A stretch of DNA of 32,000 nt from Candidatus Saccharimonadota bacterium (GTDB lineage Bacteria; Pseudomonadota; Alphaproteobacteria; CAJXXZ01; 1604HC): positions 1-32,000 of the forward strand of contig NZ_CP043315.1 in NCBI RefSeq assembly GCF_008189285.1. Direction: 5' to 3'. Each line of letters opens with the position of its first letter. Position 1 is the stretch's first letter. Below the pieces are notes generated by a model that was given only the letters and a program-made list of their open reading frames with translations, was not told where the DNA came from and did no database searches. Positions 1 to 29,465 of this stretch are shown piece after piece. Both the position numbers and the translations under genes were made by a program.

Positions 1-1449
1 ATGATAAATGCAAACATTAAACCAAATGAATATTTATCTGAATTAGATATGGAAGATGTTTTTGTTGAAGAAAGTCTTCTTTCTTTGTTTCCTGAAAATT
101 TTTGCATTAAAAACAAGTTGCTTCCTCTTGAATGTTCCAACAATGTATTGTTTGTAGTATCAGAAGAAGACAACAAAGATTTGGTCGAAGAAATTTCTTC
201 TTATGTGAAATTTGACGATATTGTTTTTAGAGTGTGCAAAGAAGGCTCGATCGTTTTTCACATCAAGAAACTTTACAGTAAATTTAATTTTTCTATAGAT
301 CGATCTCAAGCAAATGATTCTGGAGAATATGTATGCGATAAAATTATCATAGATGCTTTTACTAAAAAAGCTTCCGATATACATTTTTGCCCTGCCAAAA
401 AAAGTGTTTTTGTTAAATATAGAGTAGATGGGATTCTGAGAGAGGTTCTTGAGTTTGAAAAAGAAAAATGGGCGTCTGTTTCTGTTAGGATAAAAATTCT
501 ATCTGATTTAGATATATCTGAGACAAGAATTCCTCAAGATGGAAGTTTTTCTAAAGAGATTTCTGGAAAACAAATAGATTTTAGAGTTGCTTGTCATCCA
601 ACTATGCATGGAGAAAATATAGTTTTGAGGGTTTTGGGGAATAGCAAATCAATAAACTTAAACAATTTAAATTATTCTGGCCACATCATGGAGGATATAA
701 ATAAATTTATAGAGACCCCTGATGGATTAATCATTTTTACTGGACCTGTTGGATCTGGAAAAACCACTTCTTTGTATAGTATATTGTCTAGATTAGATCC
801 TAAATCAAACAACATTGTAACTCTTGAAGATCCAATAGAATCTTATATCCCTTTTGTTAGGCAAACAGATATAAATAAGTCTCCAAATATGAGCTTTGCT
901 TCTGGAATAAAGTCTCTTCTGAGGCAGGATCCTAATGTTATGTTGATAGGTGAGATAAGAGATTCTGATACAGCTCATATGGTCATGAGAGCGGCTATGA
1001 CAGGTCATAAGGTTTTTACAACAATGCATACCAATAATGCTTTTGGGGTTTTTGATAGACTTGTAGAGTTTGGAATAGAAAAGAGCTTGATATTTCAATA
1101 CTTAAAAGGCATTGTTTCTCAGAGATTGGTTAGAAAATTGTGTTGTTGTAAGGTTTTGGCTAAAAATAATATTCCTGACTGCATAAAATATCATTCAAAA
1201 GGAAGCAGTTTTATTTTTGAAGCAAATGGTTGCGCTAAGTGTGATTACACTGGATTTGATGGGCGTGTTGTGGTTGCAGAGAGTTTGTTTGTAGATGGAA
1301 AAAGAAAAACAGGAAACATAATGATGAAAAATAATTTATCAGATATAGTTCCTGAAGATTTCTGTGAAATATCCTTTGATGCAAGAAAAAAGATTGTGTC
1401 TGGAGAGACAACTCTTGAAGAGGTTTCCAGATCCATAGATATGTCTTGA
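1..1449 (+). CDS. Type IV filament assembly ATPase, GspE/PilB family (T2SS/T4P secretion NTPase)
   Basis: 482-aa ORF. Walker A GPVGSGKTTS, Asp-box/Walker B LRQDPNVMLIGEIRD and His-box GHKVFTTMHTN are present. The tetracysteine CCCK...CAKC is followed by TGFDGR, typical of GspE/PilB. The N-terminal ~100 aa resemble the GspE_N domain. I cannot tell T2SS from T4P by eye. Confidence 0.9.
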   Translation: MINANIKPNEYLSELDMEDVFVEESLLSLFPENFCIKNKLLPLECSNNVLFVVSEEDNKDLVEEISSYVKFDDIVFRVCKEGSIVFHIKKLYSKFNFSIDRSQANDSGEYVCDKIIIDAFTKKASDIHFCPAKKSVFVKYRVDGILREVLEFEKEKWASVSVRIKILSDLDISETRIPQDGSFSKEISGKQIDFRVACHPTMHGENIVLRVLGNSKSINLNNLNYSGHIMEDINKFIETPDGLIIFTGPVGSGKTTSLYSILSRLDPKSNNIVTLEDPIESYIPFVRQTDINKSPNMSFASGIKSLLRQDPNVMLIGEIRDSDTAHMVMRAAMTGHKVFTTMHTNNAFGVFDRLVEFGIEKSLIFQYLKGIVSQRLVRKLCCCKVLAKNNIPDCIKYHSKGSSFIFEANGCAKCDYTGFDGRVVVAESLFVDGKRKTGNIMMKNNLSDIVPEDFCEISFDARKKIVSGETTLEEVSRSIDMS

Positions 1450-1455
1450 TGTTGT

Positions 1456-2598
1456 TTGATGTTATTTAAATACTTGGCTTTGTCTAAATCTGGAGTTAGA
1501 AAATCTGGACTTCTTGAGGCAAATAGTTTCGAAGATGCAATGATGGTTATGGATCACAAAGATATGAGCGTTGTTTCTTTAAAAAGAAAAATTGTTTTCT
1601 TTGGAAATAAGTTAAGTGATTCTGATTTGTTCTTGATGTTTGATTTTTTATCCAAATTTATGCTTAATGGACTTGCTTTGGATAAATCGCTGGATATGAT
1701 TTATGAATGCTCTATACGGTCAAGTTCAATGTGTATAAATATTAAGCTTTTAATCGTAAAAGGGTTTTCTTTTTCTGAAGCTCTATTAAAAAATAAAAAA
1801 CAGTTCAATAAGAGCAACATTGGAATTTTTTCAGTAATAGATAAAGTTGGTTCTATTAATAAATTTTGTGTGTTTTTATCCCAATATTACAAAAAAATGC
1901 ATAAACATAGAAATAAGATAAAAAAGAATATGAGATATCCAATTTTATTATGTGTTTTCTTTTTGATTTCTTTTTCCGTTGTGTTGAATTTATTAATTCC
2001 AAGCATAGTAGATTTAATGCAACAAACAAATCAGGATATTCCAGCTCCTTTGTCCATTATGAATCATATTTCATCTCATTTTGGACTGTACGTACTTTCC
2101 TTTGCATCTTTGCCTTTTCTGGCGTTTATTTTTAGAGAAAGAATGAGCGATTTATTGGATATTATTCCTTTTGTTAGAAAATATAGAATGTACAGAGATT
2201 TTTCCTTTTTCTTTTATGTAAGTAGCATGCTTCTTAGTAATGAGATAAGACTAATAAATGGATTTAGAATTGCAAAAGATTGCATGTTAGTCAGAAGAAA
2301 TGCGTACATGATAGAAGAGGTGTGTAGTAGCGTAGAATCTGGAGAATCAATAAGCAATGCTTTTCAAAATGCAGGAATAGAAGAGAGGTTATGCAAGTTA
2401 ATTGATTTATACGAGAAATCTGCCAATTTACAGGATGGTTTTCATGTTATTTCAGAGATGTATGAAATGGAAATGTTTAAGATTATAGATGGGATAGGTG
2501 ATTATTTGCAGCCAGTAATTTTGTCTTTAATAACTGGGCTAATTAGTTTAATAGTATATTCAATTATGGTTCCTGTTTATAGTTCTTTCTCTGTTTGA
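1456..2598 (+). CDS. Type IV filament inner-membrane platform protein, GspF/PilC family
   Basis: 380-aa ORF lying 7 nt after the ATPase gene. The N-terminus FKYLALSKSGVRKSGLLEANSFEDAMMVMDHKDMSVVSLK matches the GspF/PilC N-terminal pattern. It has two T2SSF-like halves with hydrophobic helices. The start is TTG 1456 or ATG 1459. It ends in a double stop, TGA TGA. Confidence 0.85.
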   Translation: MMLFKYLALSKSGVRKSGLLEANSFEDAMMVMDHKDMSVVSLKRKIVFFGNKLSDSDLFLMFDFLSKFMLNGLALDKSLDMIYECSIRSSSMCINIKLLIVKGFSFSEALLKNKKQFNKSNIGIFSVIDKVGSINKFCVFLSQYYKKMHKHRNKIKKNMRYPILLCVFFLISFSVVLNLLIPSIVDLMQQTNQDIPAPLSIMNHISSHFGLYVLSFASLPFLAFIFRERMSDLLDIIPFVRKYRMYRDFSFFFYVSSMLLSNEIRLINGFRIAKDCMLVRRNAYMIEEVCSSVESGESISNAFQNAGIEERLCKLIDLYEKSANLQDGFHVISEMYEMEMFKIIDGIGDYLQPVILSLITGLISLIVYSIMVPVYSSFSV

Positions 2599-2680
2599 TG
2601 ACAGTTATCAACCATAACTGGGCTAATTAGTTTAATAATATATTCAATTATGGTTCCTGTTTATAGTTCTTTCTCTGTTT
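2530..2680. repeat. Direct duplication of the pilC-like gene tail (67 bp, copies 2530-2596 and 2614-2680, offset 84 nt)
   Basis: The sequence ataactgggctaattagtttaata[g/a]tatattcaattatggttcctgtttatagttctttctctgttt occurs twice with one mismatch (2554 g vs 2638 a). Copy 1 is the last 22 codons of the gene. Copy 2 lies downstream, in the same frame, and ends in TAG. Confidence 0.95.
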
Positions 2681-2782
2681 AGTTTTAGAGCGTCGAATAT
2701 ATAAGAAATTTATTAGGAGTAAAATTGTATTTGTTTGGGGGGGCATGATTCATTTTTGTATTGAATATGTTAAATTATTTAT

Positions 2783-3337
2783 ATGAGCAAATCTTTAGAA
2801 GATATATTAGCTTCAATTAGAAATGGCAAAAATATAACTGAGCATTCTACAGAAAAGAAATTTGATGAAGATTTTTATCTTGAGGAAAGTAAGGCTCTTA
2901 GGAGCGGTTCTGTGATTCAAGAAGATGATTCTATAAAACACATTAAACACGCTTTGGGGGAATTAAAAGAAATAGATGAAAAGTATGTTTCAATTCAGAA
3001 AACAGAGAAATTGAAAATTAAAGAAAGTGAATTAAATGATTTGATTGGCCCTATGTTTAATTCTTGGTTTAAAAATAATAAGCAAGAAATCATGAATACT
3101 CTTTCTTCTAAAATTGATATTAAGGATATTTCTCAGGATTTGATGAAGAGTATAATTTCTAGTGCAATTGAAGAGCGCATTTCTGAAGAATATATAAATA
3201 ACATCTTAATAAAGCATGTTAAGGGTTATCATTCTTATATTAAGCAAACTATAGATCATTTGATTGGGAATGTTATTCAAGATAGATTGCATGAAACTAT
3301 TGAAGATGTAATCAGAAAAATTATGAGGAATAAATGA
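2783..3337 (+). CDS. DUF2497/PopZ-like protein (alphaproteobacterial)
   Basis: The N-terminal MSKSLEDILASIRNG matches the conserved M-EEILASIRRI start of PopZ/DUF2497 proteins. It has an acidic middle and a helical C-terminal part (LNDLIGPMFNSWFKNN...). The stop overlaps the valS start (ATGA). Assignment is by motif recall only. Confidence 0.5.
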   Translation: MSKSLEDILASIRNGKNITEHSTEKKFDEDFYLEESKALRSGSVIQEDDSIKHIKHALGELKEIDEKYVSIQKTEKLKIKESELNDLIGPMFNSWFKNNKQEIMNTLSSKIDIKDISQDLMKSIISSAIEERISEEYINNILIKHVKGYHSYIKQTIDHLIGNVIQDRLHETIEDVIRKIMRNK

Positions 3338-5895
3338 GCTTTATAGAAAATATTAAAGAAATAGAGAAATGTAAATCTGCTAATTTTGATACAAAAAAGT
3401 ACGATGGGGTTGTTGTTTTGCCTCCACCAAACATAACTGGAAGATTGCATATTGGGCATGCTTTAAATGCCTTTGTACAAGACCTTAGGGTAAGGTTTGA
3501 GAAGTTGCATGGAAGAAATATATTATGGATTCCTGGCACAGATCATTCAGGAATAGCAACTCAAATATTGGTTGAGAAATCTATCGCCCCATTGACCAAA
3601 TATGATCTAGGGAGAGAAAATTTCTTAGAAAAAGTATGGGATTGGAAAGAAAAATATCAGGAGAATATATATGATCAATTAAAATCGCTTGGTCTTTTAT
3701 TAAATTGGGATTATGCAAAATTTACCATGGATGACGACATGCAAATTTCTGTATCCAAGGCATTTTGTGAGCTTTATAATAGCGGATTAATTTACAAAGC
3801 AAAAAAGATGATTAATTGGGACGTGCAATTGGAAACGGCTATTTCTGATCTAGAGGTAAAATCTGAAGAAATGAAGGGGTCGTTATATTACATTAAGTAT
3901 GATTTAGATGATGATGATTTGAAAGAGATAGTTGTTGCAACGACAAGGCCAGAAACATTGTTTGGAGATCAGGCTATTGCCGTAAATCCTAATGATGAAC
4001 GATATGAAGGAATGATAGGAAAATTTGCTAGAATTCCTTTAACAAATCGAAAAATAAAAATAATTTCAGATGAGAGATGTGAGATAAATGTTGGAACTGG
4101 AGCTGTTAAAATTACTCCTGCGCATGATTTTCTGGATTTTGAGATTGGGCAAGATCACAATTTAGATAACTGTAGCATTATTGATCAAAAAGGCATGCTT
4201 TGCAGCGATTTAGTGCCAAGTAAATATATTGGTTTGGATAGATTTATAGTTAGAAAGATGCTTGAAGATGATTTAGGAGATTATTTAGAGAAGATTGAAA
4301 ATATTAAGCATGTAATTCCAAAAGGAGATAGATCTGGAACTGTGCTAGAGCCAAGATTAACTGATCAATGGTTTATTGACACATCTGATCTTGCAAAGCA
4401 AGCTCTAGAAGCATTAAAAGATATTGAAATTTACCCTGATTACCTTGTAAATACATATAAACATTGGATGAACAATATTCAACCATGGTGCATTTCTCGA
4501 CAACTATGGTGGGGGCATAGAATTCCTGTTTGGTATTGTGAAGGCAAAGTAATCGTTGCAATCAATAAGGAAGAAGCTGAGAAAAAAGCTTTGAAAATGA
4601 AGTTAAATATAAAAGACTTAAAGCAAGATGAAGATGTGTTAGACACATGGTTTTCATCGGGGTTGTGGTCATTTACAACAATTGAAAATAATAATTTAAG
4701 TTCTGATTTTTATCCAAATGATTTTTTGGTTACTGGAAGTGATATATTATTTTTCTGGGTAGCAAGAATGATTATGTTTGGATGCTTTTTCAAGAAAAAT
4801 GTTCCTTTTAAAGAAGTTTATTTGCATGGGTTAGTTCAAGATGGATTTGGAAAGAAAATGTCTAAATCAAAAAATAATGCAATAGATCCTATGGAAGTTG
4901 TTGATAAGGAGGGCAAAGATGTCTTGAGGTTTGCTTTGCTTTATTCTTCGATTCCTGGAAAGAATGTTAAATTTGGAGATAAGAATATTGAGCATTCAAG
5001 GCATTTTTGTATAAAAATATGGAATTTGTACAAATATGCAAAACACCACCTTGGAAATGAAATGAATTCAACTTCAGATGAAATAAAAATTGATGAAAAT
5101 ATAAAAATAAATCATGCGTGGAATATTTGGATTCAAAATGAAGTTGATCACAGAATATATGATATTAATAAATGCATTAGAAGTTGGGATTTGTATCATG
5201 CTGCTAGCAAGGTGTATAAAATGGTTTGGGATGTTTTTTGTAGTTGGTATTTGGAAGGATCTAAATATTTGTTGAATTCAGAATATAAAGATGAAACAAA
5301 GTATGTATTGGCAAATTCTATTAAGAAGATATCTGTTTGTTTGCATCCATTTATTCCATTTTTAACTTCATATATTTACAAAGATTTATTTGGCAAAGAT
5401 ATATTGAATCATGAAATGTCTGAGAACTCAGTTGAATTAATTAATAACGATGAAGTAAATTTTGCAAAAAAAGCAATTGACGCAATAAGATTTATAAAAG
5501 CTGCATTTGAGATAGAGAAAAAACCTATTTTGCATGTGACAAATAATCAAGAATATAAAAATATGTATGGAATTATTAATCAGATTTCAAAATGTGAAAT
5601 TCAGCTATCTGAAAATGCATATTCAGAAGAGCATATTCCTTATCCTATTTCTGATGGATTTTTGAGCATTCCAATTAAGAATTTTAATTCTAATGAAATA
5701 AATATAAAGTTGAATAAAATGAAAGAAAATATGCAAAAAGAATATGACATGATATGCGCCAAATGCAATAATAACGAATTTATTTCAAAAGCTCCGCAAG
5801 AAGTTAGAGAAGAGATGATCAAAAGAGTAAAAATTCTAGGAGGAGATCTAAAAAAGATGGACAATTTAATTAGTATGTTGGAGAATTCATTATGA
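3334..5895 (+). CDS. valS: Valine--tRNA ligase
   Basis: 853 aa. HIGH motif PPPNITGRLHIGHALN, KMSKS motif KKMSKSKNN, ValRS-typical TTRPETLFGDQAIAVNP, and a C-terminal coiled-coil tail. Confidence 0.97.
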   Translation: MSFIENIKEIEKCKSANFDTKKYDGVVVLPPPNITGRLHIGHALNAFVQDLRVRFEKLHGRNILWIPGTDHSGIATQILVEKSIAPLTKYDLGRENFLEKVWDWKEKYQENIYDQLKSLGLLLNWDYAKFTMDDDMQISVSKAFCELYNSGLIYKAKKMINWDVQLETAISDLEVKSEEMKGSLYYIKYDLDDDDLKEIVVATTRPETLFGDQAIAVNPNDERYEGMIGKFARIPLTNRKIKIISDERCEINVGTGAVKITPAHDFLDFEIGQDHNLDNCSIIDQKGMLCSDLVPSKYIGLDRFIVRKMLEDDLGDYLEKIENIKHVIPKGDRSGTVLEPRLTDQWFIDTSDLAKQALEALKDIEIYPDYLVNTYKHWMNNIQPWCISRQLWWGHRIPVWYCEGKVIVAINKEEAEKKALKMKLNIKDLKQDEDVLDTWFSSGLWSFTTIENNNLSSDFYPNDFLVTGSDILFFWVARMIMFGCFFKKNVPFKEVYLHGLVQDGFGKKMSKSKNNAIDPMEVVDKEGKDVLRFALLYSSIPGKNVKFGDKNIEHSRHFCIKIWNLYKYAKHHLGNEMNSTSDEIKIDENIKINHAWNIWIQNEVDHRIYDINKCIRSWDLYHAASKVYKMVWDVFCSWYLEGSKYLLNSEYKDETKYVLANSIKKISVCLHPFIPFLTSYIYKDLFGKDILNHEMSENSVELINNDEVNFAKKAIDAIRFIKAAFEIEKKPILHVTNNQEYKNMYGIINQISKCEIQLSENAYSEEHIPYPISDGFLSIPIKNFNSNEINIKLNKMKENMQKEYDMICAKCNNNEFISKAPQEVREEMIKRVKILGGDLKKMDNLISMLENSL

Positions 5896-6242
5896 AAATA
5901 TTTGTCGCTGTAGTTGCATTTCTGTTGTATGGATGCGATTCAAAACATGGATTTATAATGAACAAGAGTGTTTTAGGCATTTCAGAGAATGATTTGTATT
6001 CTAAATATGGGAAGTCTGTGATTTCTCATCCAATGAATAAAAACGCCTTATTCTACTTTGAATCTTATGGGAAGAAAATGAATTGGGCTAGAATAGAAAT
6101 TAAGAATGGAAAAGTTTGTTCGTATAATTCTGGATTTTCAAACAGCAAGCCAAGGATTGCAAATCATGTGAAGCCTAATTTAGTGAAAACCAAATGGATT
6201 GATGAATTATTCAGCTATATTGGATCTGCTTCAACAGGATAA
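5892..6242 (+). CDS. Small lipoprotein, possibly BamE/SmpA-OmlA-like
   Basis: Lipobox FLLYGC at residues 10-15. The following segment NKSVLGISENDLYSKYGKSVISHP...FYFE...IEIKNGKV resembles the SmpA/OmlA fold pattern. The start overlaps the valS stop (ATGA). The functional call is tentative. Confidence 0.45.
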   Translation: MKIFVAVVAFLLYGCDSKHGFIMNKSVLGISENDLYSKYGKSVISHPMNKNALFYFESYGKKMNWARIEIKNGKVCSYNSGFSNSKPRIANHVKPNLVKTKWIDELFSYIGSASTG

Positions 6243-6413
6243 CAAGCATATCATTTAAGCTGAATAGGGCAATAAAATGCTTTTAGCCTGATAATATAAA
6301 TATTATTAATTTATTCAGCGATCCAAGTGTTTAAGTCTTTTTTGCTTCAATATTGAATTAATCTCTCTAAGTTAATTGAATTTTTCTCGATAATGTGTTT
6401 TAATGTAGATATT

Positions 6414-6539
6414 ATGAAAGTAGCAAGTTCTTTAAAAACTCTAAAACTAAGACACAAAGATTGTAAAATAGTCAAAAGAAAAGGAAGAGTTTACGTAATC
6501 AATAAAAAATATCCTAGATATAAGGCAAGACAAGGCTAA
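6414..6539 (+). CDS. rpmJ: 50S ribosomal protein L36 (long, alpha-type)
   Basis: Hand translation gives [41 protein letters not shown] (41 aa). This matches the L36 pattern MKV.SSLK...[22 protein letters not shown]. It is below the ORF-track length cut-off. Confidence 0.9.
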
Positions 6540-6760
6540 TGAGCCAAAATAATTTTAAAAGTATTTTGGCTATGACTCAAAGAGCTAAGGATTTGACCAA
6601 TGGAGAAATGCCTAAGGAAAAGATCAATAGCGATAATGTTGGGTATATAGCTTATTGCGAATTCTATAAGGGAGTATTAGATGAAGACGACCTTTTTAAG
6701 CGTTTTGTTAATCAAGATAAATATGTCGAAGATGACGATGATGATGAATACAAAGCCTAG
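6539..6760 (+). CDS. Small acidic-tailed protein, possibly RNA polymerase omega subunit
   Basis: 73 aa. NNFKSILAMTQRAKDLTNGEMP...GYIAYCEFYKGVL loosely parallels the omega core NRF.LV..AA.RARQL..G..P...K....AL.EI..G. The start overlaps the rpmJ stop (TAATG). The similarity is weak and recalled from memory. Confidence 0.4.
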   Translation: MSQNNFKSILAMTQRAKDLTNGEMPKEKINSDNVGYIAYCEFYKGVLDEDDLFKRFVNQDKYVEDDDDDEYKA

Positions 6761-6808
6761 TTTTGCATTGATCTTTAATAATTTTTAATTATAAGCACTA
6801 TAATCAAT

Positions 6809-6838
6809 GATCTGTTTCAGATCTTGTAATATTTTTTT
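6809..6838 (+). terminator. Weak hairpin plus T7 run downstream of the rpmJ/omega-like pair
   Basis: gatctg-ttt-cagatc forms a 6-bp perfect stem (6809-6823). It is followed 8 nt later by ttttttt (6832-6838). The spacing is non-canonical. Confidence 0.25.
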
Positions 6839-7112
6839 GGCATATTTAATACGAATTGCTTTGCAAGATTACAAACAAATAGATGGGATCTCCATCAGAT
6901 AATTTACAAATAATTTATAAATCAATTTCATTGCAGAAAAGCCTATCAATCAATTTTATTATAGAATTTTATAAATTTTTCTAGTTTAATTTCGAGTTTT
7001 ATTGAGTTTGTTGAAGCAATTCATTGCGAAATCTTGAAGTTTTCTTGAATTCCCCTAAAAATCATTCAATATTTGCTCTTAAGAGGTATTTTTGTCATTA
7101 AAAGATATTTCA

Positions 7113-7249
7113 TTAAATTTATTCCACAAATTCTAGTTTCCTTAATTATTTATTTCAAGAATTATTCAATCTGAGAAGGTTCTGATTAATTTATTTCAAA
7201 GATTGTCTAATCTGCAAGAGTTTTGATTAAATGTGTAAGTTGCAAAAAT
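7113..7249. repeat. 137-bp dispersed direct repeat, copy 1 (contains an internal 41-bp tandem sub-repeat)
   Basis: Matches 7357-7493 at an offset of 244 nt with 3 mismatches (7206, 7208, 7233). Inside the copy, tatttcaa (7151, 7192) and aatctg (7168, 7209) recur with a 41-nt period. Confidence 0.95.
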
Positions 7250-7356
7250 CCCAATTAAGCATTTTAAATGCACGCATTAATTTATCTAAAGAATTATAGT
7301 CTTAATCAATGTGTGGGTTGTAGAAGTTATAGTTACTTGGATTTTAAAATCCTTCG

Positions 7357-7493
7357 TTAAATTTATTCCACAAATTCTAGTTTCCTTAATTATTTATTTC
7401 AAGAATTATTCAATCTGAGAAGGTTCTGATTAATTTATTTCAAAGATTGCCCAATCTGCAAGAGTTTTGATTAAATATGTAAGTTGCAAAAAT
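7357..7493. repeat. 137-bp dispersed direct repeat, copy 2
   Basis: ttaaatttattccacaaattctagtttccttaattatttatttcaagaattattcaatctgagaaggttctgattaatttatttcaaagattg... is repeated from 7113-7249. Weaker similarity continues for about 20 nt past the 3' edge. Confidence 0.95.
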
Positions 7494-7969
7494 TCTCATT
7501 AAATTTTAAAAGGCTATTATCAATATATAATTTGCAGAAATTCCAATTAAGTTTTCAAAAGTTTTGATCAGCATGTAATCAAGAGATATCATTGTGCTAT
7601 TTTATGAGAATTATAAGCAATGTAAGTTGCTTTCTTAGTAATAAACACAATCTATAGATGAATTAAGACAAACCATTTATAGACTCTTAATCTAGTTAGG
7701 AAAATCACAACTAGATCATTGTAAATTTCAAATTAATGAATTGTAGATTTTCAATTTTCAAATCATTTTAAAGTAACGCATAATCTCGAAAGTTATTATT
7801 AAGATCTATCTTGCAAATTAACATATAAATTTGTAAAAATTAGGATCATTTTAGAGATATTTTTTCTCAATTTGTTAGCATTCTAAATATCATTAGCTTT
7901 CCTGTCTATATTATTAGATGTTGAAAAGTTGTAAAATTGCTGATAATTAGTTATTTGAAAGGCAGTTTT

Positions 7970-16646: not shown

Positions 16647-17591
16647 TTATCTGAAAGCTTTTTGATTATTTTTAGAACATGCAACAGAAAGTAGGCCTTC
16701 TCGCAATCCAGCGTTAGACATAACAATAACTGATATATTAGATATTATTGATATAATTTTATCTATAAAAATACAGCTTCCACGTGTAGAAATGTCTTTC
16801 TGGTTAGTTCTGTCATTTCTTTCAATGTCTCGTATAATTTCTCCAAATGATTGCTTTACTTGAATTAGAGGCAATATTTTGCCATGCAATATTTTGATAT
16901 CTATATCTTTGAGAGAATGGGTATGGTTTGCAAGCGTGCTCATAATTCCAGATTTAGCTATTATGAAAGGTATGCTTTGTTGTGCGTGATTTTTCATGCA
17001 TCTATGTGCAAACTGTCTTATTATATTTTCAGTTTCCTGGTCCATATAATATTCGCTATTGCTTTCAAGGAATTTTAAAATTCCAATTGGCAAAGAGATC
17101 CATTCTTTCAAATGCACGGAGTTATTATGTTTTAGGCATAGAGCTATTTCAGTACTGCAACCACCCATGTCAATTACATAAGAATATTTATATGGCATAA
17201 TCTCGGAACACCCTAAAGAAGATAAATATATCTCTTCATCTGGGTCAATAACTCTAAAATTTAGACCTGTTTCATTCTTAATTCTTTTTATTATATGATT
17301 TTTGTTTGAAGCAAGTCTGCATGCTGCAGTTACTACGCATTCAATCCGTTTTACATCATATTGTTTGGCTATTTGCATGCATTTGTATAAAAAAGATATA
17401 GTTCTGTTGGCTGCATCTTCTTGAATTAATCCAGTTTTATATACTTTGTCACCTAATCTTACAGCATTTGCTGCAGACTTAAGTATTGAAAAACCCAAAG
17501 GTTTGTTTTTATTTGCAAATCCAATTAACATCCTGCAAAGATTTGATCCCAAATCTATGCATGCTGCTTTGTTATTGTAATTAAATTTCAT
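16647..17591 (-). CDS. Ppx/GppA family phosphatase (exopolyphosphatase / pppGpp phosphohydrolase)
   Basis: ASKHA-fold phosphate motifs CIDLGSNLCRMLIG and VIDMGGCSTEIAL. At 314 aa it covers the N-terminal catalytic module only. Confidence 0.85.
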   Translation of the reverse strand: MKFNYNNKAACIDLGSNLCRMLIGFANKNKPLGFSILKSAANAVRLGDKVYKTGLIQEDAANRTISFLYKCMQIAKQYDVKRIECVVTAACRLASNKNHIIKRIKNETGLNFRVIDPDEEIYLSSLGCSEIMPYKYSYVIDMGGCSTEIALCLKHNNSVHLKEWISLPIGILKFLESNSEYYMDQETENIIRQFAHRCMKNHAQQSIPFIIAKSGIMSTLANHTHSLKDIDIKILHGKILPLIQVKQSFGEIIRDIERNDRTNQKDISTRGSCIFIDKIISIISNISVIVMSNAGLREGLLSVACSKNNQKAFR

Positions 17592-17932
17592 TATACTAAA
17601 TTTAACATATTTTTTTGTTTTATGATAAATTATATGATGTTTGCCTAGATAAATAAAATAAATTCATTTTTACTATATGTGATTAACATTGTATTTATTT
17701 AATTCATACACTAATCATTCATGTTTACGAAAGTCAAAATTTACTGCTAGGCGGTAAAATGGTAAGGTGTCAGGAGAATATAATGGTAATTTTAGATTTT
17801 AATTTTTATAAAAACTACAATACGTTGATTGCAATAAAGTCAGATAAGTACTTAGTTAAAAGAAAAATAGTAAGAAGACGAACAGCAAAAATATCAAAGA
17901 AACTTCCGTGATCATGCTTTGCATGCTAAATT

Positions 17933-18487
17933 GTGTTTGTGAAAATATTTAGAAAAGTGCCAAAAACTTTTAAAGCGCTTAGTTTGTTAGAAGTTAGTTT
18001 TGTATTGATAATTATGAGCCTGATGACATTTGCAGTTATGAAAGGCGTTGGGTTGGTTAGAAAAACTCAAGTAAATCGCTTGTCAAATGATGTGCAAGTT
18101 TATATTTCTGCAGCTCAATATTTTAAGAATGAAAATGGACAATTGCCTGGATTATATTCTGAAAGTCATAGTCCTGCGCCTATTTATGCAAATACTACTC
18201 AGAAATTTTTTGCTCAACTTCAAAAGTCTGGATTGGTGAACGTTAAAGAATCAGATAGTTATTCTACTCCCATAGGTGGATATTATGTGATAGATGAAGA
18301 TAATGGTGATTTGTGGATCAAGATATGCAAAGATAGTCAAGGAAGTGAATATTATTCAATAAGTAGTAGTCAATGGAGCGTATTAAAGCATAATGAAAAT
18401 ATAGATGAAGTTAGACATGGAAATACAGATGAGTTTAGCGATAATTCAGCAAGCCAAACAAGATCTATAAGATTTAAAGTTGGATAA
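17933..18487 (+). CDS. Prepilin-type N-terminal domain protein (type IV pilin / T2SS pseudopilin-like)
   Basis: Class III signal: the basic leader MFVKIFRKVPKTFKA is followed by LSLLEVSFVLIIMSLMTFAV, with Glu at +5. The alpha1-C region RLSNDVQVYISAAQYFKNENGQLPG resembles GspG/pilin. The start is GTG 17933; alternative GTGs are at 17939 and 17957. Confidence 0.7.
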   Translation: MFVKIFRKVPKTFKALSLLEVSFVLIIMSLMTFAVMKGVGLVRKTQVNRLSNDVQVYISAAQYFKNENGQLPGLYSESHSPAPIYANTTQKFFAQLQKSGLVNVKESDSYSTPIGGYYVIDEDNGDLWIKICKDSQGSEYYSISSSQWSVLKHNENIDEVRHGNTDEFSDNSASQTRSIRFKVG

Positions 18488-18864: not shown

Positions 18865-18872
18865 TGAAATTT

Positions 18873-20054
18873 ATGAAATTTATTAGAAATTATTTTTCTT
18901 TCACATATCTGGGAACCTTGCTTGAATATTATGATTACGTGCTTTTTATGCAGTTATCTTATTTTATATCTAAAGTATTTTTCCCTGAAAATTTTAATTC
19001 AATGTTTTATTTGTTTTCTGCTGGATATGCTGCAAGATTTTTTGGAATTTTTGCAATTAGTTTTTTTAGACATGATCAAGAAAAAATATTAAAAGCATCA
19101 TTGTTGATTGTGTCTGTTTCTAGTTTAATTATATCTATAATGCCAACTTATCAATCCATAGGTTTGGTTTCTACATATGTATTAATAACATTAAGATTAT
19201 TGCAAAGCATTTCTTATGCAGTGGAATTTCCTTCTGCAGTTTGCATCGCATCTGAGTCTAGTTCAAAGATAGGGTTAGTTATCTCTAGTGCCACTGTAGG
19301 ATCTATTTTAGCCAATTTATCACCGTGGATTTTATTATTATTTTTTAACAGTCAGCAGATTTTAGATTTTTATTGGAGGATTCCTTTTATGATTTCTGGA
19401 GCATTAGGTTTGATTTTGTTTAGATCAAGGTCTGTAAATTATGAAATGATTGAACGTGTAAGAAAAAGTATGTCTCAGTTTAATTTTATATCTCATTCTA
19501 AGGGAATATTAAACTCTATAAACACTTTGCTATTTCCTGGATTTTTGATCATAGCTTATATGTGTTTGCCTCAATTTTACACTAAATATGGTTATAGCGA
19601 TTTGTATTTTATATATAAATATAAGTTAATTATGTTAGTATTTTCAATAATATGCGTTAGCATAATTGGAAAATTAATGGACTCCAACAAGAATAAAATA
19701 TTTAATGAAAGTGGGATTTTGCATGTTCATAGATATTTTGTGATTTTATGGACCGCAATAGCCTCTTTGTCCTTAATGTGTAAATTTGGAGCTATATTGT
19801 TGATGGCATTTATGCAATTTTGCATTGCATTTTCATTTCAGTACGGATTAAAAAATATGCGCTCTCAATGCAGAGGTTCAATTTTCGCATCTATTATTGC
19901 TTATAATACAAGTATGTTTATTGGATCTTTTGCCTCTTCGTTTATTAGTTTTGCATATATGATTATTATTCCATTGTCCCTTGGATCTTTATTTGCATTT
20001 CAAATTAATAAGAATTTCAAAAATACTGACCTGAAGACCAATCAGCAAGATTAA
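18873..20054 (+). CDS. MFS transporter, ProP/metabolite:H+ symporter-like (divergent)
   Basis: Polytopic hydrophobic protein. The N-terminal LGTLLEYYDYVLFMQLSYFISKVFFP matches the ProP-type G..EW.DF..Y......FFP motif. I set the start at ATG 18873 because the ORF-track start at 18807 lies inside tRNA-Lys. Confidence 0.7.
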   Translation: MKFIRNYFSFTYLGTLLEYYDYVLFMQLSYFISKVFFPENFNSMFYLFSAGYAARFFGIFAISFFRHDQEKILKASLLIVSVSSLIISIMPTYQSIGLVSTYVLITLRLLQSISYAVEFPSAVCIASESSSKIGLVISSATVGSILANLSPWILLLFFNSQQILDFYWRIPFMISGALGLILFRSRSVNYEMIERVRKSMSQFNFISHSKGILNSINTLLFPGFLIIAYMCLPQFYTKYGYSDLYFIYKYKLIMLVFSIICVSIIGKLMDSNKNKIFNESGILHVHRYFVILWTAIASLSLMCKFGAILLMAFMQFCIAFSFQYGLKNMRSQCRGSIFASIIAYNTSMFIGSFASSFISFAYMIIIPLSLGSLFAFQINKNFKNTDLKTNQQD

Positions 20055-20063
20055 GAGTATAGA

Positions 20064-21830
20064 TTGATCAATTTTATTTCACATAATTACATGTCATTTC
20101 TACCATTATTTGGTGTTCAAATTTTGCTTTATAAGATTTTTTCAAAAAATAGAGAGTTTTCATCAACATTATTTGTTTTGTTTGGCTTTGTTTCTTATTT
20201 ATTTTTCTCATCAGAATCTATCTTTTTCACATTTTTATTGTGGGAAATAATTACGTGGATTTCTTATCTTTTATTACGCAATGAAAATAATCGAAAAGAA
20301 ACTAGAGTTATATTGTTAAACAATATATTTGGAGGGCTTGCATTCGCATGGGCAACATGTGTTTTGTTAAAGAAGGTTAGTTTGTGGAGTGATTTGCATA
20401 ATGTTGATTTTTCCAATGCAGATATAATTCAGATTTCGCTTGGTTTGTCTGTAGCTATTTTAACAAAATCATCTCAATTTCCATTTTCTTGGTTAATGCT
20501 AACTAAAAAATCTTCATCGCTTGTTAGTGCGTATTTGCATTCTTCAACTGTAGTGCAAATGGGAATTTACTTGATGGTAAAAATACACTCATCCGCTTTA
20601 AGTAGTGATCTATTTTTCTGGATTATATGTATTTCATCTTGCATAACTATCATTCAATCTTCTATGTATTTTAATAATAACAATTTGAAAGTATTAATTG
20701 CCATTACATCTCAAATTCATGCATCATTATGCATTTTGCTTGCTTTGTACGATATTAATTGCATAAGAAATATAATCATTGTTCATGCGATTTATAAGTC
20801 TTTTATGTTTATTTATTGCGATGAAATATTTAGGAAAAATAAAAGTTACAATATTAGAGATGTAAATTCCATTTCTTTTTCCTCTTTTCTGTTGTTGATT
20901 TTATGCTCCATTCCTATGTGTGGGATTCCTGGATTTATGGCTAGCGCAGTTTATGGAAGCAAGGTGTTTTTGCAAAACAAAATAAATTATATTTTGATGC
21001 TTATCATTAAGTCTTTCAATATTTTGATATTTGTCAAATTATTTATACAAATTTCTAATTTAATTAGAAGTAAAAAGATTGAGTTTTTTAGCTATTTGCA
21101 TGTTTTGCTATTGCCATGTTTATTGTTCTTAGCTCCATCAGGATTTATCAAAACAAACTATTTTATTTTATCCATCCTTTTTTCTTTTTTGCTTTCTAAG
21201 TTTGCACTTAAGTCAGAGAGCAATTTTAATGTTGTGAAACTGTTTGGGTCTTTGATTGAAATGGCTAAAATTCCAAGTAAAAAAGATTATATATTTTACC
21301 TATCCTTTCTTTTGATCTTCATTGCAGCTGTGGGTAATTTTTATGAATGCAATGTTTTTGATAATTTTTTAATGCATTTTAATGTAGAAGATATAATATT
21401 CTATGCGTTTCTGATTTTTGGATGCTTTTTTCTTCTTCAAGATGGTATTTTTAAGAAGCTATCTGGATTTTGGTTGATAAGCATTTTTACGACAAATGAA
21501 TATATGAAATTTGGGGGAGTTGATATTGTTGTTACCAATATATTGGCTGATGTCATTGTGTCTTATTTGCTTATTAAATCATTTATGAATTTTGACCACA
21601 AAGATAATAATATGATTAGATTTATAAGATCTGTCCCTATCAATGCTACGATATCTTTTTGCTGCATTTCTTTTTTTAAAATTTCTTCTAAGATTGTGCA
21701 TTATAATTCGTCAATTTCAGTGAATGATATAGTTGTATTTTATCGTATTTTAGACACTTTAGGAGAGACCTTAGTTTTGTTGATAGTTGGGTTATGCATT
21801 AATTTTTTGATAGCTAAGGATAGATATTAA
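20064..21830 (+). CDS. Proton-conducting antiporter-like membrane protein (NuoL/MrpA family), divergent and orphan
   Basis: LLWEIITWISYLLL resembles the NuoL/MrpA N-terminal WE..G..SYLLI. TKSSQFPFSWLMLTKKSSSLVSAYLHSSTVVQMGIYL resembles KSAQ.PF..WLP.AM..PTPVSAL.H..T.V.AG.YL. It has many TM helices. No other Mrp or Nuo subunits are nearby. Confidence 0.55.
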   Translation: MINFISHNYMSFLPLFGVQILLYKIFSKNREFSSTLFVLFGFVSYLFFSSESIFFTFLLWEIITWISYLLLRNENNRKETRVILLNNIFGGLAFAWATCVLLKKVSLWSDLHNVDFSNADIIQISLGLSVAILTKSSQFPFSWLMLTKKSSSLVSAYLHSSTVVQMGIYLMVKIHSSALSSDLFFWIICISSCITIIQSSMYFNNNNLKVLIAITSQIHASLCILLALYDINCIRNIIIVHAIYKSFMFIYCDEIFRKNKSYNIRDVNSISFSSFLLLILCSIPMCGIPGFMASAVYGSKVFLQNKINYILMLIIKSFNILIFVKLFIQISNLIRSKKIEFFSYLHVLLLPCLLFLAPSGFIKTNYFILSILFSFLLSKFALKSESNFNVVKLFGSLIEMAKIPSKKDYIFYLSFLLIFIAAVGNFYECNVFDNFLMHFNVEDIIFYAFLIFGCFFLLQDGIFKKLSGFWLISIFTTNEYMKFGGVDIVVTNILADVIVSYLLIKSFMNFDHKDNNMIRFIRSVPINATISFCCISFFKISSKIVHYNSSISVNDIVVFYRILDTLGETLVLLIVGLCINFLIAKDRY

Positions 21831-21858
21831 GAGACAAATATGATAGAAATTTAAATAT

Positions 21859-23340
21859 ATGAATATAATTTTTAAGTCAATTTTATCTTTAGTTTTATGT
21901 TTTTGCAGTTTTGAATCTATGCAAGCTAAAGGTGCAAAAAATACAAATACAACAGCTAATGTTAAGAAGCATTCCAATCAATCAAGAAAAAGAGATGCCT
22001 ATCATAAATCAGAATTATCATTTATTTCTTCAGGAGATATAAAGCAAATAGAAGATTGGGCATCAAAAGTGGTTGCTAGCAATAATTATGTAAAGTGCAT
22101 AAGGGCTAAATTTGTTTCAAAAAATGCTAAAAATATAGCAGATATTATGGCATTCTTTCCATCTGTAGATGTTTCCCTTTCTCATCAGCATGTTTTTAGA
22201 GAAAATGGAGCTAATGCTAAAAAAGTTTTTGATGCTAAGTGGCATAACAAAGAGGTAAAAGTTAATTTGATTCAACTTAAAAATTCTATGATTACTGATA
22301 TAGCTGCTTCAGGAATGAAATCGAAAGCTGATCTTGAAGAATACTGGAAAGAATGGTCTAAATTTTGTTTAGAAGATGTTATTTCTAACTTAATAGATTG
22401 GATAGCGCAAAAATCTATCGTAAGAATGAAGCAAAATATTGTAAATTCAAGAAAATCTATCGTAAGAAAAATAGATTTAAGAATACAAACAGGAGTTATG
22501 AATGTTTCTGATTTATATTCTGCGCAATCTGAATTAGCTACTTCTGAGGCAGAATTATTTATTGCGCAAAATAAAGCAAAAGTTTTGAGAAATAAATTAG
22601 ATGATATTTCAGGCGGAATTGAACCCCCTCAACAAATTGGAGTTATATCAGAGTATGGAAATTGGGAAGAGAATAAGTCATCCATTTTAAGAAATTCTCA
22701 TGACTTAAAGCAAGAATATTACATGAGAAAACATAAAATCGCTAAAGGATCATCAAATGTATTAGGTGGAACTTTGCCGAATTTAGGCATTGAAATGTCA
22801 TTTAATAAAAAATCTGACCATCACACTTTTGGATCGAATCCTTTGAAAAAATGGAGAGGTTCTTTTGATTTGAGCTTAAGTCAGCATATTGGATTAGATA
22901 ATATTCCTAGAATTGTGAGCGGGTCAAAAGGAGTTGTTGCTGCTAGATTAGAATATTTAGAGGCTGTTAGAAAAACCATTACTGCTGGACATGAAGTGTT
23001 TGCTGATCTTGAAAATAGCGCGCAAGAATTGAAAATGCATAGAAGAGCTTTGGAGATTCATGAGAAATCATTGAGAGTTAAAAGAGAGTTATTTTTCAAT
23101 GATTTAGAATTGCAAGGAAAAAGAAGATTATCTATAGATGATGTGATTTATGCTGAAGGAAATGTAACTTATGGGCATAATAAAACCATTGAAGCATATC
23201 AAAAAGCTGCAAAAAGCTACTTCACACTTATGCATATGAAAGGTGAATTAGCCAGAAGAATTGGAAACAGAAAAAATTCAAACAAATCTTTTGAGAATAG
23301 CGTTAAACAAGCACAAATAAAAAGAAATAAAAAGAAATAA
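21859..23340 (+). CDS. TolC-family outer-membrane efflux protein (putative)
   Basis: Signal peptide MNIIFKSILSLVLCFCSFESMQA. Helical repeats carry the TolC-like pattern (VSDLYSAQSELATSEAELFIAQNKAKVLRNKLDDISG; second half EYLEAVRKTITAGHEVFADLENS...). The C-terminal tail is lysine-rich. Confidence 0.55.
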   Translation: MNIIFKSILSLVLCFCSFESMQAKGAKNTNTTANVKKHSNQSRKRDAYHKSELSFISSGDIKQIEDWASKVVASNNYVKCIRAKFVSKNAKNIADIMAFFPSVDVSLSHQHVFRENGANAKKVFDAKWHNKEVKVNLIQLKNSMITDIAASGMKSKADLEEYWKEWSKFCLEDVISNLIDWIAQKSIVRMKQNIVNSRKSIVRKIDLRIQTGVMNVSDLYSAQSELATSEAELFIAQNKAKVLRNKLDDISGGIEPPQQIGVISEYGNWEENKSSILRNSHDLKQEYYMRKHKIAKGSSNVLGGTLPNLGIEMSFNKKSDHHTFGSNPLKKWRGSFDLSLSQHIGLDNIPRIVSGSKGVVAARLEYLEAVRKTITAGHEVFADLENSAQELKMHRRALEIHEKSLRVKRELFFNDLELQGKRRLSIDDVIYAEGNVTYGHNKTIEAYQKAAKSYFTLMHMKGELARRIGNRKNSNKSFENSVKQAQIKRNKKK

Positions 23341-23360
23341 AAAATTTCGAAAGGAAAAAA

Positions 23361-24683
23361 ATGTTATCAGTTTTAAATTTAAATTTTAAAATCACAAAAG
23401 AAAGAGGCGATGCGTTGCTTTTTTCTGTCAAAAAATCAGAAGATAACTTGATTTATAGAAATGAATCTTCTATAGAATATTTTACAAGTAAAAAAGATTA
23501 TTTGATTATTGGGGTAGAGGTTGCAAAATATATAAAAAAAGAAAATAAAAGCTTGTCAGATATTTGTATAGACTGCTCTATGGAAAAAGAAGATTTTTTA
23601 AAATTTTATGAAGGAATTTTAATAGGGTCTTGGGAGTACGATAATCACAAAACTGACAAGAGTGGTAAAAATATCTCTGTGAATTTATTAATCAATCAAA
23701 ATATGGGAAATGACATAGAAAGCAAAGCAAAGGAAATTTCTAATTTAATTGAAGCTTCTTTCTTGACTAGAAAGTTGGTTGAAATGCCAGGAAACTTGCT
23801 TACTCCTAGCAAATTAGCTGAGTATGCAAAAAATATAGATGGGTTAAAAGTCGAGGTAGAGAAAATAAATCATGGTGGAATTTGGGAAGTTGGAAAAGGA
23901 AGCTCTGAAGATCCTCTTTTGCTAACTTGCGAATGGAATGGAGATAGCTCTGAAGATCCGATAATATTGGTTGGAAAAGGAGTCACATTCGATTCAGGTG
24001 GATTGTCTTTAAAGCCGCCAAGAAGCATGGAAGACATGAAATGTGATATGGGTGGAGCTGCTACTGTTCTAGGAATTATGCAGGCTGCTGTAAAAAATAA
24101 AATTAAAAAAAGAATTATTGGAATTATGCCATGTGTTGAAAATATGCCATCTGGAAATGCGCTTAAACCAGGTGATGTAATTACTTCAATGTCTGGAAAA
24201 ACAATAGAAGTTCTAAATACTGATGCTGAGGGAAGATTGATTTTAGCAGATGCTTTGCACATTGCTCAAAATAAATATAATGCTAAGGAAATTATTGATT
24301 TTGCAACATTAACTGGAGCTGTGACAGTTGCATTAGGAGAATTATATGCTGGATTATTTTCCAATAATAATGAGCTAGCTAATAAAATAACTGAATCAGG
24401 GGAAATGGTTTGTGAGCCTGTTTGTAGATTGCCTTTGCATGAGAAGTATGATGAATTGATGAATAGTGATATAGCTGATATGTGTAATATACAAAAACCT
24501 GGGGGCGGGGCAGGAAGTATTACTGCTGCGCAATTTCTTCAGAGATTTGTTAATTCTGATGTTGCATGGGCTCATTTAGACATTGCTGGAGTTGCAAGAA
24601 CTTCATTTAATTCGGCTATTAATATAAATAAATCTACTGGATTTGGAGTTAGATTAATTTATAATTACTTAACAAATAATTGA
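23361..24683 (+). CDS. pepA: Leucyl aminopeptidase (M17)
   Basis: M17 signatures VGKGVTFDSGGLSLKP and NTDAEGRLILADAL. 440 aa. Confidence 0.95.
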   Translation: MLSVLNLNFKITKERGDALLFSVKKSEDNLIYRNESSIEYFTSKKDYLIIGVEVAKYIKKENKSLSDICIDCSMEKEDFLKFYEGILIGSWEYDNHKTDKSGKNISVNLLINQNMGNDIESKAKEISNLIEASFLTRKLVEMPGNLLTPSKLAEYAKNIDGLKVEVEKINHGGIWEVGKGSSEDPLLLTCEWNGDSSEDPIILVGKGVTFDSGGLSLKPPRSMEDMKCDMGGAATVLGIMQAAVKNKIKKRIIGIMPCVENMPSGNALKPGDVITSMSGKTIEVLNTDAEGRLILADALHIAQNKYNAKEIIDFATLTGAVTVALGELYAGLFSNNNELANKITESGEMVCEPVCRLPLHEKYDELMNSDIADMCNIQKPGGGAGSITAAQFLQRFVNSDVAWAHLDIAGVARTSFNSAININKSTGFGVRLIYNYLTNN

Positions 24684-28605: not shown

Positions 28606-29184
28606 GTGCAATTTGTTGTTTTATTAAGTCTTATGCTGTATGGATGTGTGCAAAAATGGGAAGATGCTCCTAGAAGAAGTAGTGGAAGAGATATATTTTC
28701 TGTTAAACGTAGAAGTGGATCGCATTATACTGTTAAGAATAGCCAAGGTTCTTTTAAAGTAAAAAGGCAAGGTCATTACAATTTAGATGAGTATGGAATA
28801 GCGTCATATTATGGAGGAAAATTTCATAATCGTAAAACTGCTATTGGAGTTGTATATAATCAATGGGATATGACATCTGCTCATCCAACCATTCCTCTTC
28901 CTGCTGTTTTGAAAGTTTCTCGCACGGATACAGGAAAGTCTATTTATGTTCTTGCAATAGATAGAGGTCCATTTGTGAAGAAAGGCCCAAGAAGAGTTAT
29001 AGATTTATCAAGAGGGGCGGCAAAAGCTTTAGGGATGGAAAGACAAGGAGTGGCACATGTTAGAGTGCAATGCCTTGCTATGGAAAGCGAAAGGTTAAGG
29101 AAAAATTGGCCAACACATAAGAGAAATGGAAAAATACCATATAATCTAGCATGCAAATATACTAAAAGTAGAAACCATTGGTAA
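28606..29184 (+). CDS. rlpA: Septal ring lytic transglycosylase RlpA-family lipoprotein (DPBB domain)
   Basis: Lipobox LMLYGC. DPBB signature GIASYYGGKFHNRKTA...MTSAHPTIPLPAVLKVSR...YVLAIDRGPF. GTG start. Confidence 0.85.
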   Translation: MQFVVLLSLMLYGCVQKWEDAPRRSSGRDIFSVKRRSGSHYTVKNSQGSFKVKRQGHYNLDEYGIASYYGGKFHNRKTAIGVVYNQWDMTSAHPTIPLPAVLKVSRTDTGKSIYVLAIDRGPFVKKGPRRVIDLSRGAAKALGMERQGVAHVRVQCLAMESERLRKNWPTHKRNGKIPYNLACKYTKSRNHW

Positions 29185-29244
29185 AAAATTAAAAGTAGAA
29201 ACCATTGGTAAAAAATTAAAAGTAGAAATCATTACAAGAAAATC
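29164..29244. repeat. 27-bp tandem repeat x3 spanning the rlpA stop codon
   Basis: aaaagtagaaaccattggtaaaaaatt occurs at 29164-29190 and, identically, at 29191-29217. A degenerate third copy is at 29218-29244. Copy 1 carries the last six codons plus the stop (KSRNHW*). Confidence 0.92.
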
Positions 29245-29465
29245 ATAAATCATATAAAGCATTAATATTTCTATAAAATTTGATATTATGAATATGAATT
29301 TTTATTTAAATTAATCAATCTTTATATAATTTTATAATTTGACACTTAATCAATGGAGCTCATCTTTTATTAAATAATTTATATCTCTTACTTGATAATT
29401 TAATTGATTTCTTGCTTACTATTCAATAATTTTGATTTTTCTAGGCCAGTGTTATATATTAAGTT

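Follow-up and report, generated by a model that had tools for sequence, protein, structure and literature searches.

Four dispersed, conserved type IV filament genes in the reduced genome of the diplonemid endosymbiont Candidatus Cytomitobacter indipagum

The stretch analysed here, referred to throughout as the window, comprises 32,000 nucleotides (nt) of contig NZ_CP043315.1 (positions 1 to 32,000, forward strand) and opens the chromosome of Candidatus Cytomitobacter indipagum. This member of the Holosporaceae has a genome of 628 kbp and 29.5% GC and lives as an endosymbiont in a marine protist, the diplonemid Diplonema aggregatum. G+C content is about 30% across the whole window. It encodes four parts of one type IV filament machine class, to which type II secretion systems (T2SS) and type IV pili (T4P) belong: an assembly ATPase, an inner-membrane platform, a secretin and a prepilin-type protein, here called the pseudopilin (Table 1). 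A preliminary description of the window had proposed this assignment, which is borne out by domain, motif and family evidence. The four open reading frames (ORFs) have the boundaries it gave, are full length against their orthologues, and do lie split among housekeeping genes. Its comparison with the classical Rickettsiales fails, since C. indipagum does not belong to that order, and the surprise of the finding came from this wrong taxonomic assumption. FZC35_00075, a hypothetical protein of C. indipagum, shares 99% identity with the prepilin-type ORF, the sole difference being the choice of start codon. A scan with the ATPase, using one genome per species, found four relatives with chromosomes of 558-622 kb, the closest being Candidatus Cytomitobacter primus at 68% identity.

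Table 1. Features of the filament gene set and its surroundings. Coordinates refer to the window, or to the named locus (L numbers) for genes of relatives. aa, amino acids; TPR, tetratricopeptide repeat; LRR, leucine-rich repeat.
Feature	Coordinates	Strand	Basis
GspE/PilB-type assembly ATPase, 482 aa	1..1449	+	MshEN/N1E-like N-terminal domain and ATPase core, all nucleotide-binding boxes
GspF/PilC-type inner-membrane platform, 380 aa	1456..2598	+	Pfam T2SSF 3e-21, two stretches
67-nt direct duplication of gspF 3' end, stop region included	2530-2596 and 2614-2680	+	repeat search, 99% identical
Lipoprotein-type TPR-secretin, 566 aa ORF (annotated start 12855)	12834..14534	+	Pfam Secretin and TPR families
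LRR protein, 560 aa, N-terminal Sec-type signal peptide, adjoins secretin gene	14834..16516	-	weak LRR_4/LRR_8 matches
Prepilin-type (GspG-like) pseudopilin (annotated FZC35_00075, start 17939)	17933..18487	+	motif, family, predicted fold
Extra prepilin-type genes of relatives	L036 10811-12151; L039 4630-5898, 5901-7601; L040 4675-5664; L038 10596-11321		

The ATPase is recognised by Pfam T2SSE (346 bits, 3e-103) and its N-terminal domain by MshEN (1.9e-6). Among NCBIfam models GspE scores 366 bits (equivalog cut-off 630) and PilB 343, both under their cut-offs, and among solved structures EpsE of V. cholerae is the best match at 272 bits, compared with 256 for PilB. The hexameric GspE-type ATPase of a T2SS has Walker A, Walker B, Asp and His boxes, all of which are present in the sequence (Walker A GPVGSGKT, Asp box EDPIE, Walker B DPNVMLIGEIRD, His box TGHKVFTTMHTN) together with C-terminal cysteines, and the same boxes are visible in alignment to EpsE. 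The following gene supplies the polytopic platform that a T2SS also needs. Its best NCBIfam match is GspF (121 bits, under the cut-off), ahead of HofC (109), ComGB (88) and PilC (61). In four sister genomes the ATPase is 59-68% identical and the platform, each time encoded directly 3' of the ATPase gene, 43-53% identical, and the order gspE-gspF ... valS-lipoprotein-mutS is kept.

The secretin combines a pore domain (Pfam Secretin, 60.6 bits, 1.9e-16, residues 346-501) with a TPR domain at about residues 40-190 and a signal peptide with the lipobox L-A-A-G-C, an equivalent of which is present in nine of nine homologues. These nine share a single architecture of lipobox signal peptide, TPR, short ring-type region, pore domain and a C-terminal motif; this motif, H-E-Y-R-R-x-D-I, follows the secretin domain at 14400-14534 of the window and in homologues P0003-P0011, including a GC-rich member from a metagenome. 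No N0 or Secretin_N domain was detected in the protein with Pfam, the TPR occupying the N-terminal part, so that of the GspD layout, in which N0-N3 periplasmic domains precede the pore, only the pore domain was recognised. The lack of a GspC-docking N0 domain fits the absence of GspC. When the secretin family was compared as a profile with known structures, GspD scored 60-66 bits and PilQ 44-46; with the window secretin alone, the top NCBIfam match was PilQ (41 bits), with GspD at 37, MshL at 24.7 and, weakly, PilW at 18.9. A lipobox Cys at the signal-peptide cleavage site, as in liposecretins of the HxcQ type, is present, lipidation itself being predicted. HxcQ offers a precedent for a lipoprotein secretin that acts as its own pilot to the outer membrane, and TPR lipoproteins serve as pilotins of several T4P. 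Because the window secretin is a lipoprotein with TPR, it would probably reach and assemble in the outer membrane without a separate pilotin, and by analogy a single polypeptide that holds anchor, TPR and pore plausibly dispenses with one. An Asp or Glu at lipobox position +2 was also considered as an inner-membrane retention signal, which would have the protein bridge both membranes. This was rejected because the same +2 residue is found in a short lipoprotein of the window and in a predicted lipoprotein of a relative, the latter presumably BamB-like from its sequence, and thus looks general to the clade.

Linkage of uppP and the secretin gene is seen in C. indipagum, C. primus and one more distant metagenome-assembled genome. 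In three genomes the secretin gene is adjoined by a gene for a signal-peptide protein that is either an LRR protein, as in C. indipagum and C. primus, or, as in a closer relative (locus L006), similar to the C. indipagum LRR protein. The LRR protein of the window may be considered a candidate substrate or effector. The C. primus secretin gene lies within a few kb of the type VI secretion system (T6SS) genes tssA/M/L (L007 15073-21707).

Since the pseudopilin itself matched no hidden Markov model above threshold in Pfam (N_methyl included) or NCBIfam, separate proof of its identity was needed. It starts with MKIFRKVPKTFKA, continued after the cleavage position by LSLLEVSFVLIIMSLMTFAVM, that is, a basic leader of 13-15 residues, K-A|L-S-L-L-E and about 20 hydrophobic residues. 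These are the features of a class III signal peptide; position -1 is occupied by Ala rather than Gly, +1 by Leu rather than Phe, and +5 by Glu. No other ORF of the 32 kb starts in this way, also when the criteria are relaxed. When 1.84 billion representative proteins were searched with a profile, 140 matches were obtained, the best of which were from sister genomes (OZ247489, OZ247501, C. primus and CP060235); more distant ones carry the annotation 'prepilin-type N-terminal cleavage/methylation domain' or 'pseudopilin PulG', and the UniProt name of the pilin is 'Type II secretion system protein'. N_methyl matches four of the ten homologues from this search that were scanned. GspG (TIGR01710) is matched by 8 of the 11 proteins of the family, with a best E of 7e-6 and every score well short of the 88.85-bit cut-off, and the GFxxxE domain by 7 of 11; Glu+5 is invariant in the 11 homologues, and F..EYG..PG after the hydrophobic helix resembles GspG. 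A low-confidence AlphaFold2 (AF2) model, with a mean predicted local distance difference test score (pLDDT) of 60, has a helix of about 50 residues (16-66) followed by a sheet of beta-strands, and the sole credible PDB matches found with it by Foldseek were to the C. difficile type IV pilin PilA1 (6t8s; probability 0.90-1.00, E 0.016). Taken together, the motif, the conserved family and the predicted pilin-like fold confirm that the protein is prepilin-type. C. indipagum and L006 do not differ in the first 30 residues of the mature protein and are about 60% identical in the remainder; a conserved N-terminus with a diverged globular part is the usual pilin pattern. The ppx-pilin linkage is kept in L006, C. 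primus, and the relatives represented by loci L039 and L040. The C. indipagum pilin is without the C-terminal cysteine pair, and hence the disulfide, that relatives keep.

One orthologue of each of the four genes is present in every sister genome examined. Nonsynonymous divergence (dN) from C. primus is 0.25 for the ATPase and 0.24 for the secretin, with 0.23 for valS, and 0.36 for the platform, with 0.38 for mutS; the pilin has a dN of 0.29 to L006. The mutS comparison with L003 was left out as a reverse-strand artefact. Apparent dN/dS is 0.09-0.34, values that are only rough because synonymous divergence (dS) is saturated (1.3 to above 2). Housekeeping-like dN and low apparent dN/dS together argue that the four genes are maintained by purifying selection, in agreement with the preliminary description. 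The four-gene feature is real and conserved, and is probably functional.

The corresponding loci of relatives contain additional genes. Where the 3' end of gspF is duplicated in C. indipagum, the second copy starting 84 nt downstream of the first, four sister genomes (L001-L004) have a bitopic ORF of 317-337 aa, and three of the four also have yidD. In this post-gspF ORF a single hydrophobic segment lies around residue 230, and 56 columns of the alignment are invariant in the four genomes. The duplication is a probable scar of deletion or rearrangement. A true loss of the post-gspF segment in C. indipagum would agree with the listing of yidD for C. primus only (George et al., bioRxiv 10.1101/719211). 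From its position and bitopic layout alone, the post-gspF ORF might be GspL-like; in T2SS the N-domain of the ATPase binds GspL, and this domain has evolved no faster in C. indipagum than in genomes that retain the ORF. Behind the pilin gene, C. primus, OZ247489, CP060235 and a relative with a 793-kb genome have one or two larger prepilin-type genes (241-566 aa) in tandem. Their motifs are K-A-F-S-L-L-E, Y-A-F-S-L-V-E, K-A-F-A-L-F-E or K-G-F-A-L-L-E, except that the prepilin ORF called in CP060235 begins past the motif. Model matches of these large proteins are weak and limited to the N-terminus, and the pilin1-pilin2 tandem is present in many metagenome contigs. In three genomes of the diplonemid clade the tandem is followed by tadA and T6SS tssBC genes; in C. 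indipagum two tRNA genes lie downstream of the pilin. The post-gspF ORF and the extra prepilins give the clade machine at least six or seven parts. The earlier suggestion of a stripped-down part list thus calls for qualification, the machine of the clade comprising more than four parts. As a separate observation, the C. primus pilin gene is within a few kb of T6SS tssBC/F/G (L036 12742-20585).

Scores lean slightly to the T2SS side (GspE above PilB, GspF above PilC, GspD above PilQ with the family profile, and GspG as the best pilin model), by small differences that all lie under equivalog cut-offs, and from sequence the set appears T2SS-leaning, no exact clade being assigned. The reading favoured here, with a probability of roughly 0.5, is that the four genes are the core kept from a type IV filament machine that leans to T2SS, is reduced but working, goes back to the ancestor of the Cytomitobacter/Nesciobacter clade and exports Sec-dependent effectors. 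The GspE-like hexameric ATPase would power the GspF-like platform, which would polymerise the GspG-like pseudopilin into a short periplasmic filament, and this in turn would push folded Sec-exported proteins via the secretin pore into the host cytoplasm. Candidate cargo would be the signal-peptide LRR proteins encoded beside the secretin, and in sister genomes the bitopic post-gspF ORF and the one or two large prepilin proteins probably complete the machine. The symbionts have a Sec system, and C. indipagum has 106 signal-peptide proteins and 22 LRR_8 proteins. A type I secretion system (T1SS) is not listed for them (George et al., bioRxiv 10.1101/719211). With T1SS unlisted and T6SS Sec-independent, a T2SS-like machine would be the obvious candidate for an outer-membrane route for Sec-exported effectors.

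The same scores bear on two other functions. The set could instead build a short surface fibre, a T4P in the strict sense, with which the symbiont would attach to mitochondria or other host structures, or to other symbionts, and which would not serve secretion. The near equality of the PilB and GspE scores of the ATPase and the PilQ match at the top of the list for the window secretin point that way, the large prepilin-type proteins of relatives could be tip adhesins, and the symbionts are closely associated with host mitochondria; the Holosporales sets have been labelled 'incomplete type IV pili' (Dittmer et al. 2023, PMC9992710). A type IVa pilus, however, has PilB together with PilT, PilMNOP, and a PilQ with AMIN/N0 domains. 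No PilT-like second (retraction) ATPase, PilMNOP or AMIN/N0 secretin domain was seen in the window, and PilB at 343 bits scores below GspE. Platform, secretin profile and pilin family all lean towards T2SS, and the C. indipagum pilin has lost the C-terminal disulfide kept by its relatives. A surface fibre is regarded as unlikely. A competence-type DNA-uptake pilus (Com/HofQ-like) was considered in view of weak matches to the ComGA, ComGB and HofQ models and of the gene-transfer-agent genes that the clade carries. The Com and HofQ scores are, however, well under those of GspE, GspF and GspD, no ComEA, ComEC or DprA was seen in scans of the window, the paper on the gene-transfer agent mentions no competence genes, and an obligate intracellular niche offers little free DNA; DNA uptake is accordingly very improbable.

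Returning to the export reading, the small margins of the T2SS assignment and a number of missing parts weigh against it. Prepilin peptidase is its main gap, as canonical pseudopilin assembly requires leader cleavage. Pfam scans of the larger ORFs found no Peptidase_A24 in the window or any fetched locus, the regular expression GxGD[VA]K[LF], a weak test, had no match in the window and 34 loci, and Table S3 of George et al. lists no prepilin peptidase (bioRxiv 10.1101/719211). Positions -2/-1/+1, K-A-F, are nevertheless conserved across paralogous prepilin proteins, which argues that some enzyme still recognises the cleavage site. The residue at -1 is Ala in the reduced genomes and Gly in three of five more distant aligned homologues; to our knowledge, Ala is the only -1 substitution tolerated by PilD. 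The alignment complex is a second gap. GspC, GspL, GspM and PilMNOP were found neither in the window (larger ORFs scanned) nor in any fetched locus, and the minor pseudopilins GspH-K of a T2SS were likewise not found in the window. Genome-wide, George et al. list no GspC/L/M or PilMNOP gene save a 'pilM' (bioRxiv 10.1101/719211), which was not seen in the window. The absences given in the preliminary description (a prepilin peptidase motif, a second prepilin-type ORF, and any alignment-complex family among the larger ORFs) hold for the window.

The remaining points concern the parts that relatives possess. Neither the post-gspF ORF nor yidD has a tblastn match in the window, and no match to the second prepilin gene was found in the window or in the closest relative, L006; C. 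indipagum is thus without two clade parts at their conserved positions. The post-gspF ORF matches nothing in Pfam, NCBIfam, a PDB profile search or a metagenome scan, hhalign with the post-gspF ORFs of loci L013 and L027 returned nothing, and the single-sequence AF2 model (pLDDT 34) was unusable. A search with a chimeric alignment of pilin and post-gspF ORF recovered the C. primus ORF alone, without the homologues already known, and is uninformative on a C. indipagum copy. The lack of the two clade parts could mean that the system is being dismantled in C. indipagum.

At its extreme, such dismantling would leave a remnant nearing loss that makes no filament, its genes persisting through recent loss or through other roles of single parts. 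A 67-nt duplication in place of the post-gspF ORF, the lack, after the pilin, of the second prepilin gene seen in C. primus, L039, L040 and L038, a pilin that has Leu in place of the +1 Phe and is without the C-terminal cysteine pair, and the fact that no prepilin peptidase is reported would all fit a remnant. It is less easily reconciled with four full-length ORFs, with nonsynonymous divergence from C. primus and the closer relative L006 equal to that of valS, mutS and ppx, or with a mature pilin whose first 30 residues have stayed identical to L006 while the rest is only about 60% identical; the missing genes, moreover, may lie elsewhere in the genome. We consider a remnant rather unlikely. 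The opposite view is that the clade has a truly minimal secretion piston composed of one ATPase, one platform, a self-piloting lipoprotein TPR-secretin and Ala(-1) pseudopilins, with processing by a non-A24 enzyme or none at all, an arrangement that seems doubtful. In it the TPR-secretin would stand in for both the pilotin and the N0 domain that docks GspC, and C. indipagum would do without the post-gspF ORF and extra prepilins. If this were true, no smaller working T2SS-like machine would be known, and the piston would be a natural minimal model.

Several other features of the window were recorded beside these genes. After the gspE-gspF block, an ORF of 184 aa at 2783-3337 is kept in three of four sister genomes and has no Pfam match; its N-terminus (SLEDILASIRN) and C-terminus presumably recall the polar organiser PopZ. 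Over about 1.1 kb, at 6800-7900, no ORF reaches 40 aa; an Rfam search of this region found nothing, and it contains a 162-nt direct repeat (7097-7258 and 7341-7502, 93% identical). A 55-nt repeat occurs three times at 10467-10689, at a spacing of 83-85 nt, from the mutS-nth intergenic region into the 3' end of nth. Downstream of the pilin, 18870-24683 encodes a transporter of the major facilitator superfamily, a 588-aa membrane protein, a TolC-like OEP protein and pepA. The counterpart of the 588-aa protein in one sister genome has a proton-antiporter domain, and the block, which may form an efflux module, is conserved in C. primus but inverted relative to ppx-pilin. At 29156-29248, three 27-nt units in tandem run from the 3' end of an RlpA-like (DPBB_1) gene into the next spacer.

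Compared with known systems, the set shares with a canonical T2SS (Gsp/Eps/Pul/Xcp) the ATPase, the platform, the secretin pore and a probably GspG-like pseudopilin, and its best model and PDB matches are to T2SS proteins (for the secretin and pilin, by family). It differs in having no recognisable GspC, L, M, H-K or O, in carrying TPR instead of N0-N2 in its secretin, and in its scattered genes, which in the canonical system form one operon. The N-terminal lipobox of the secretin is shared with HxcQ of Pseudomonas aeruginosa, which needs no pilotin to reach the outer membrane; here, lipid anchor, TPR and secretin are in one polypeptide, for which lipidation and self-piloting are predicted. 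The TPR lipoprotein module recalls the T4P pilotins PilF/PilW/Tgl, although the likeness of the window TPR part to PilF/PilW is only that of TPR in general, with nothing specific. A cluster of the mannose-sensitive haemagglutinin (MSHA) pilus type on metagenome contig L013 (8244-18606) combines genes for an MshL-type secretin, two prepilins in tandem and a small TPR protein with, facing them, gspE-gspF, two ORFs without assignment and an AAA ATPase, a layout that resembles a possible unfused ancestor. As an orthologue in that sense it was rejected: its ATPase is only 36% identical to that of the window, and the MshL model gives 24.7 bits with the window secretin versus 178.6 with the L013 secretin, so that neither orthology nor an MshL-type secretin in the window is supported.

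The closest precedents are from the same order and the same genome. 'Incomplete Type IV pili' have been ascribed to most members of the Holosporales (Dittmer et al. 2023, PMC9992710), and the pattern described there, a Sec translocon with incomplete T4P and a reduced T6SS, is alike, at the level of a survey that gives no part-by-part anatomy of the diplonemid symbionts. For C. indipagum itself, Table S3 of George et al. (bioRxiv 10.1101/719211; Curr Biol 2020) lists gspF, gspD, pilM, pilQ and pilB, and their Fig. 3B shows a reduced T2SS/T4P, a hybrid being proposed (bioRxiv 10.1101/719211). This T2SS/T4P hybrid of Cytomitobacter and Nesciobacter concerns the same organism and the same genes and is the same general reading. 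Because these reduced or incomplete sets have been published, the finding as stated was already known; the novelty implied by the preliminary description does not stand, and as the few T2SS/T4P genes of the diplonemid Holosporaceae symbionts are in print, little is gained from restating them. The present analysis adds to the list of George et al. the pseudopilin, the lipoprotein-TPR architecture of the secretin, the post-gspF ORF and the tandem prepilins of sister genomes. What is new is thus refinement at the level of annotation: the family of the pseudopilin, the TPR-secretin, the accessory genes of relatives, and their absence from C. indipagum together with the duplication scar. The sister parts missing at the C. 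indipagum positions provide a natural comparison for dispensable parts of type IV filament machines, and the proposed tie to signal-peptide LRR effectors is testable.

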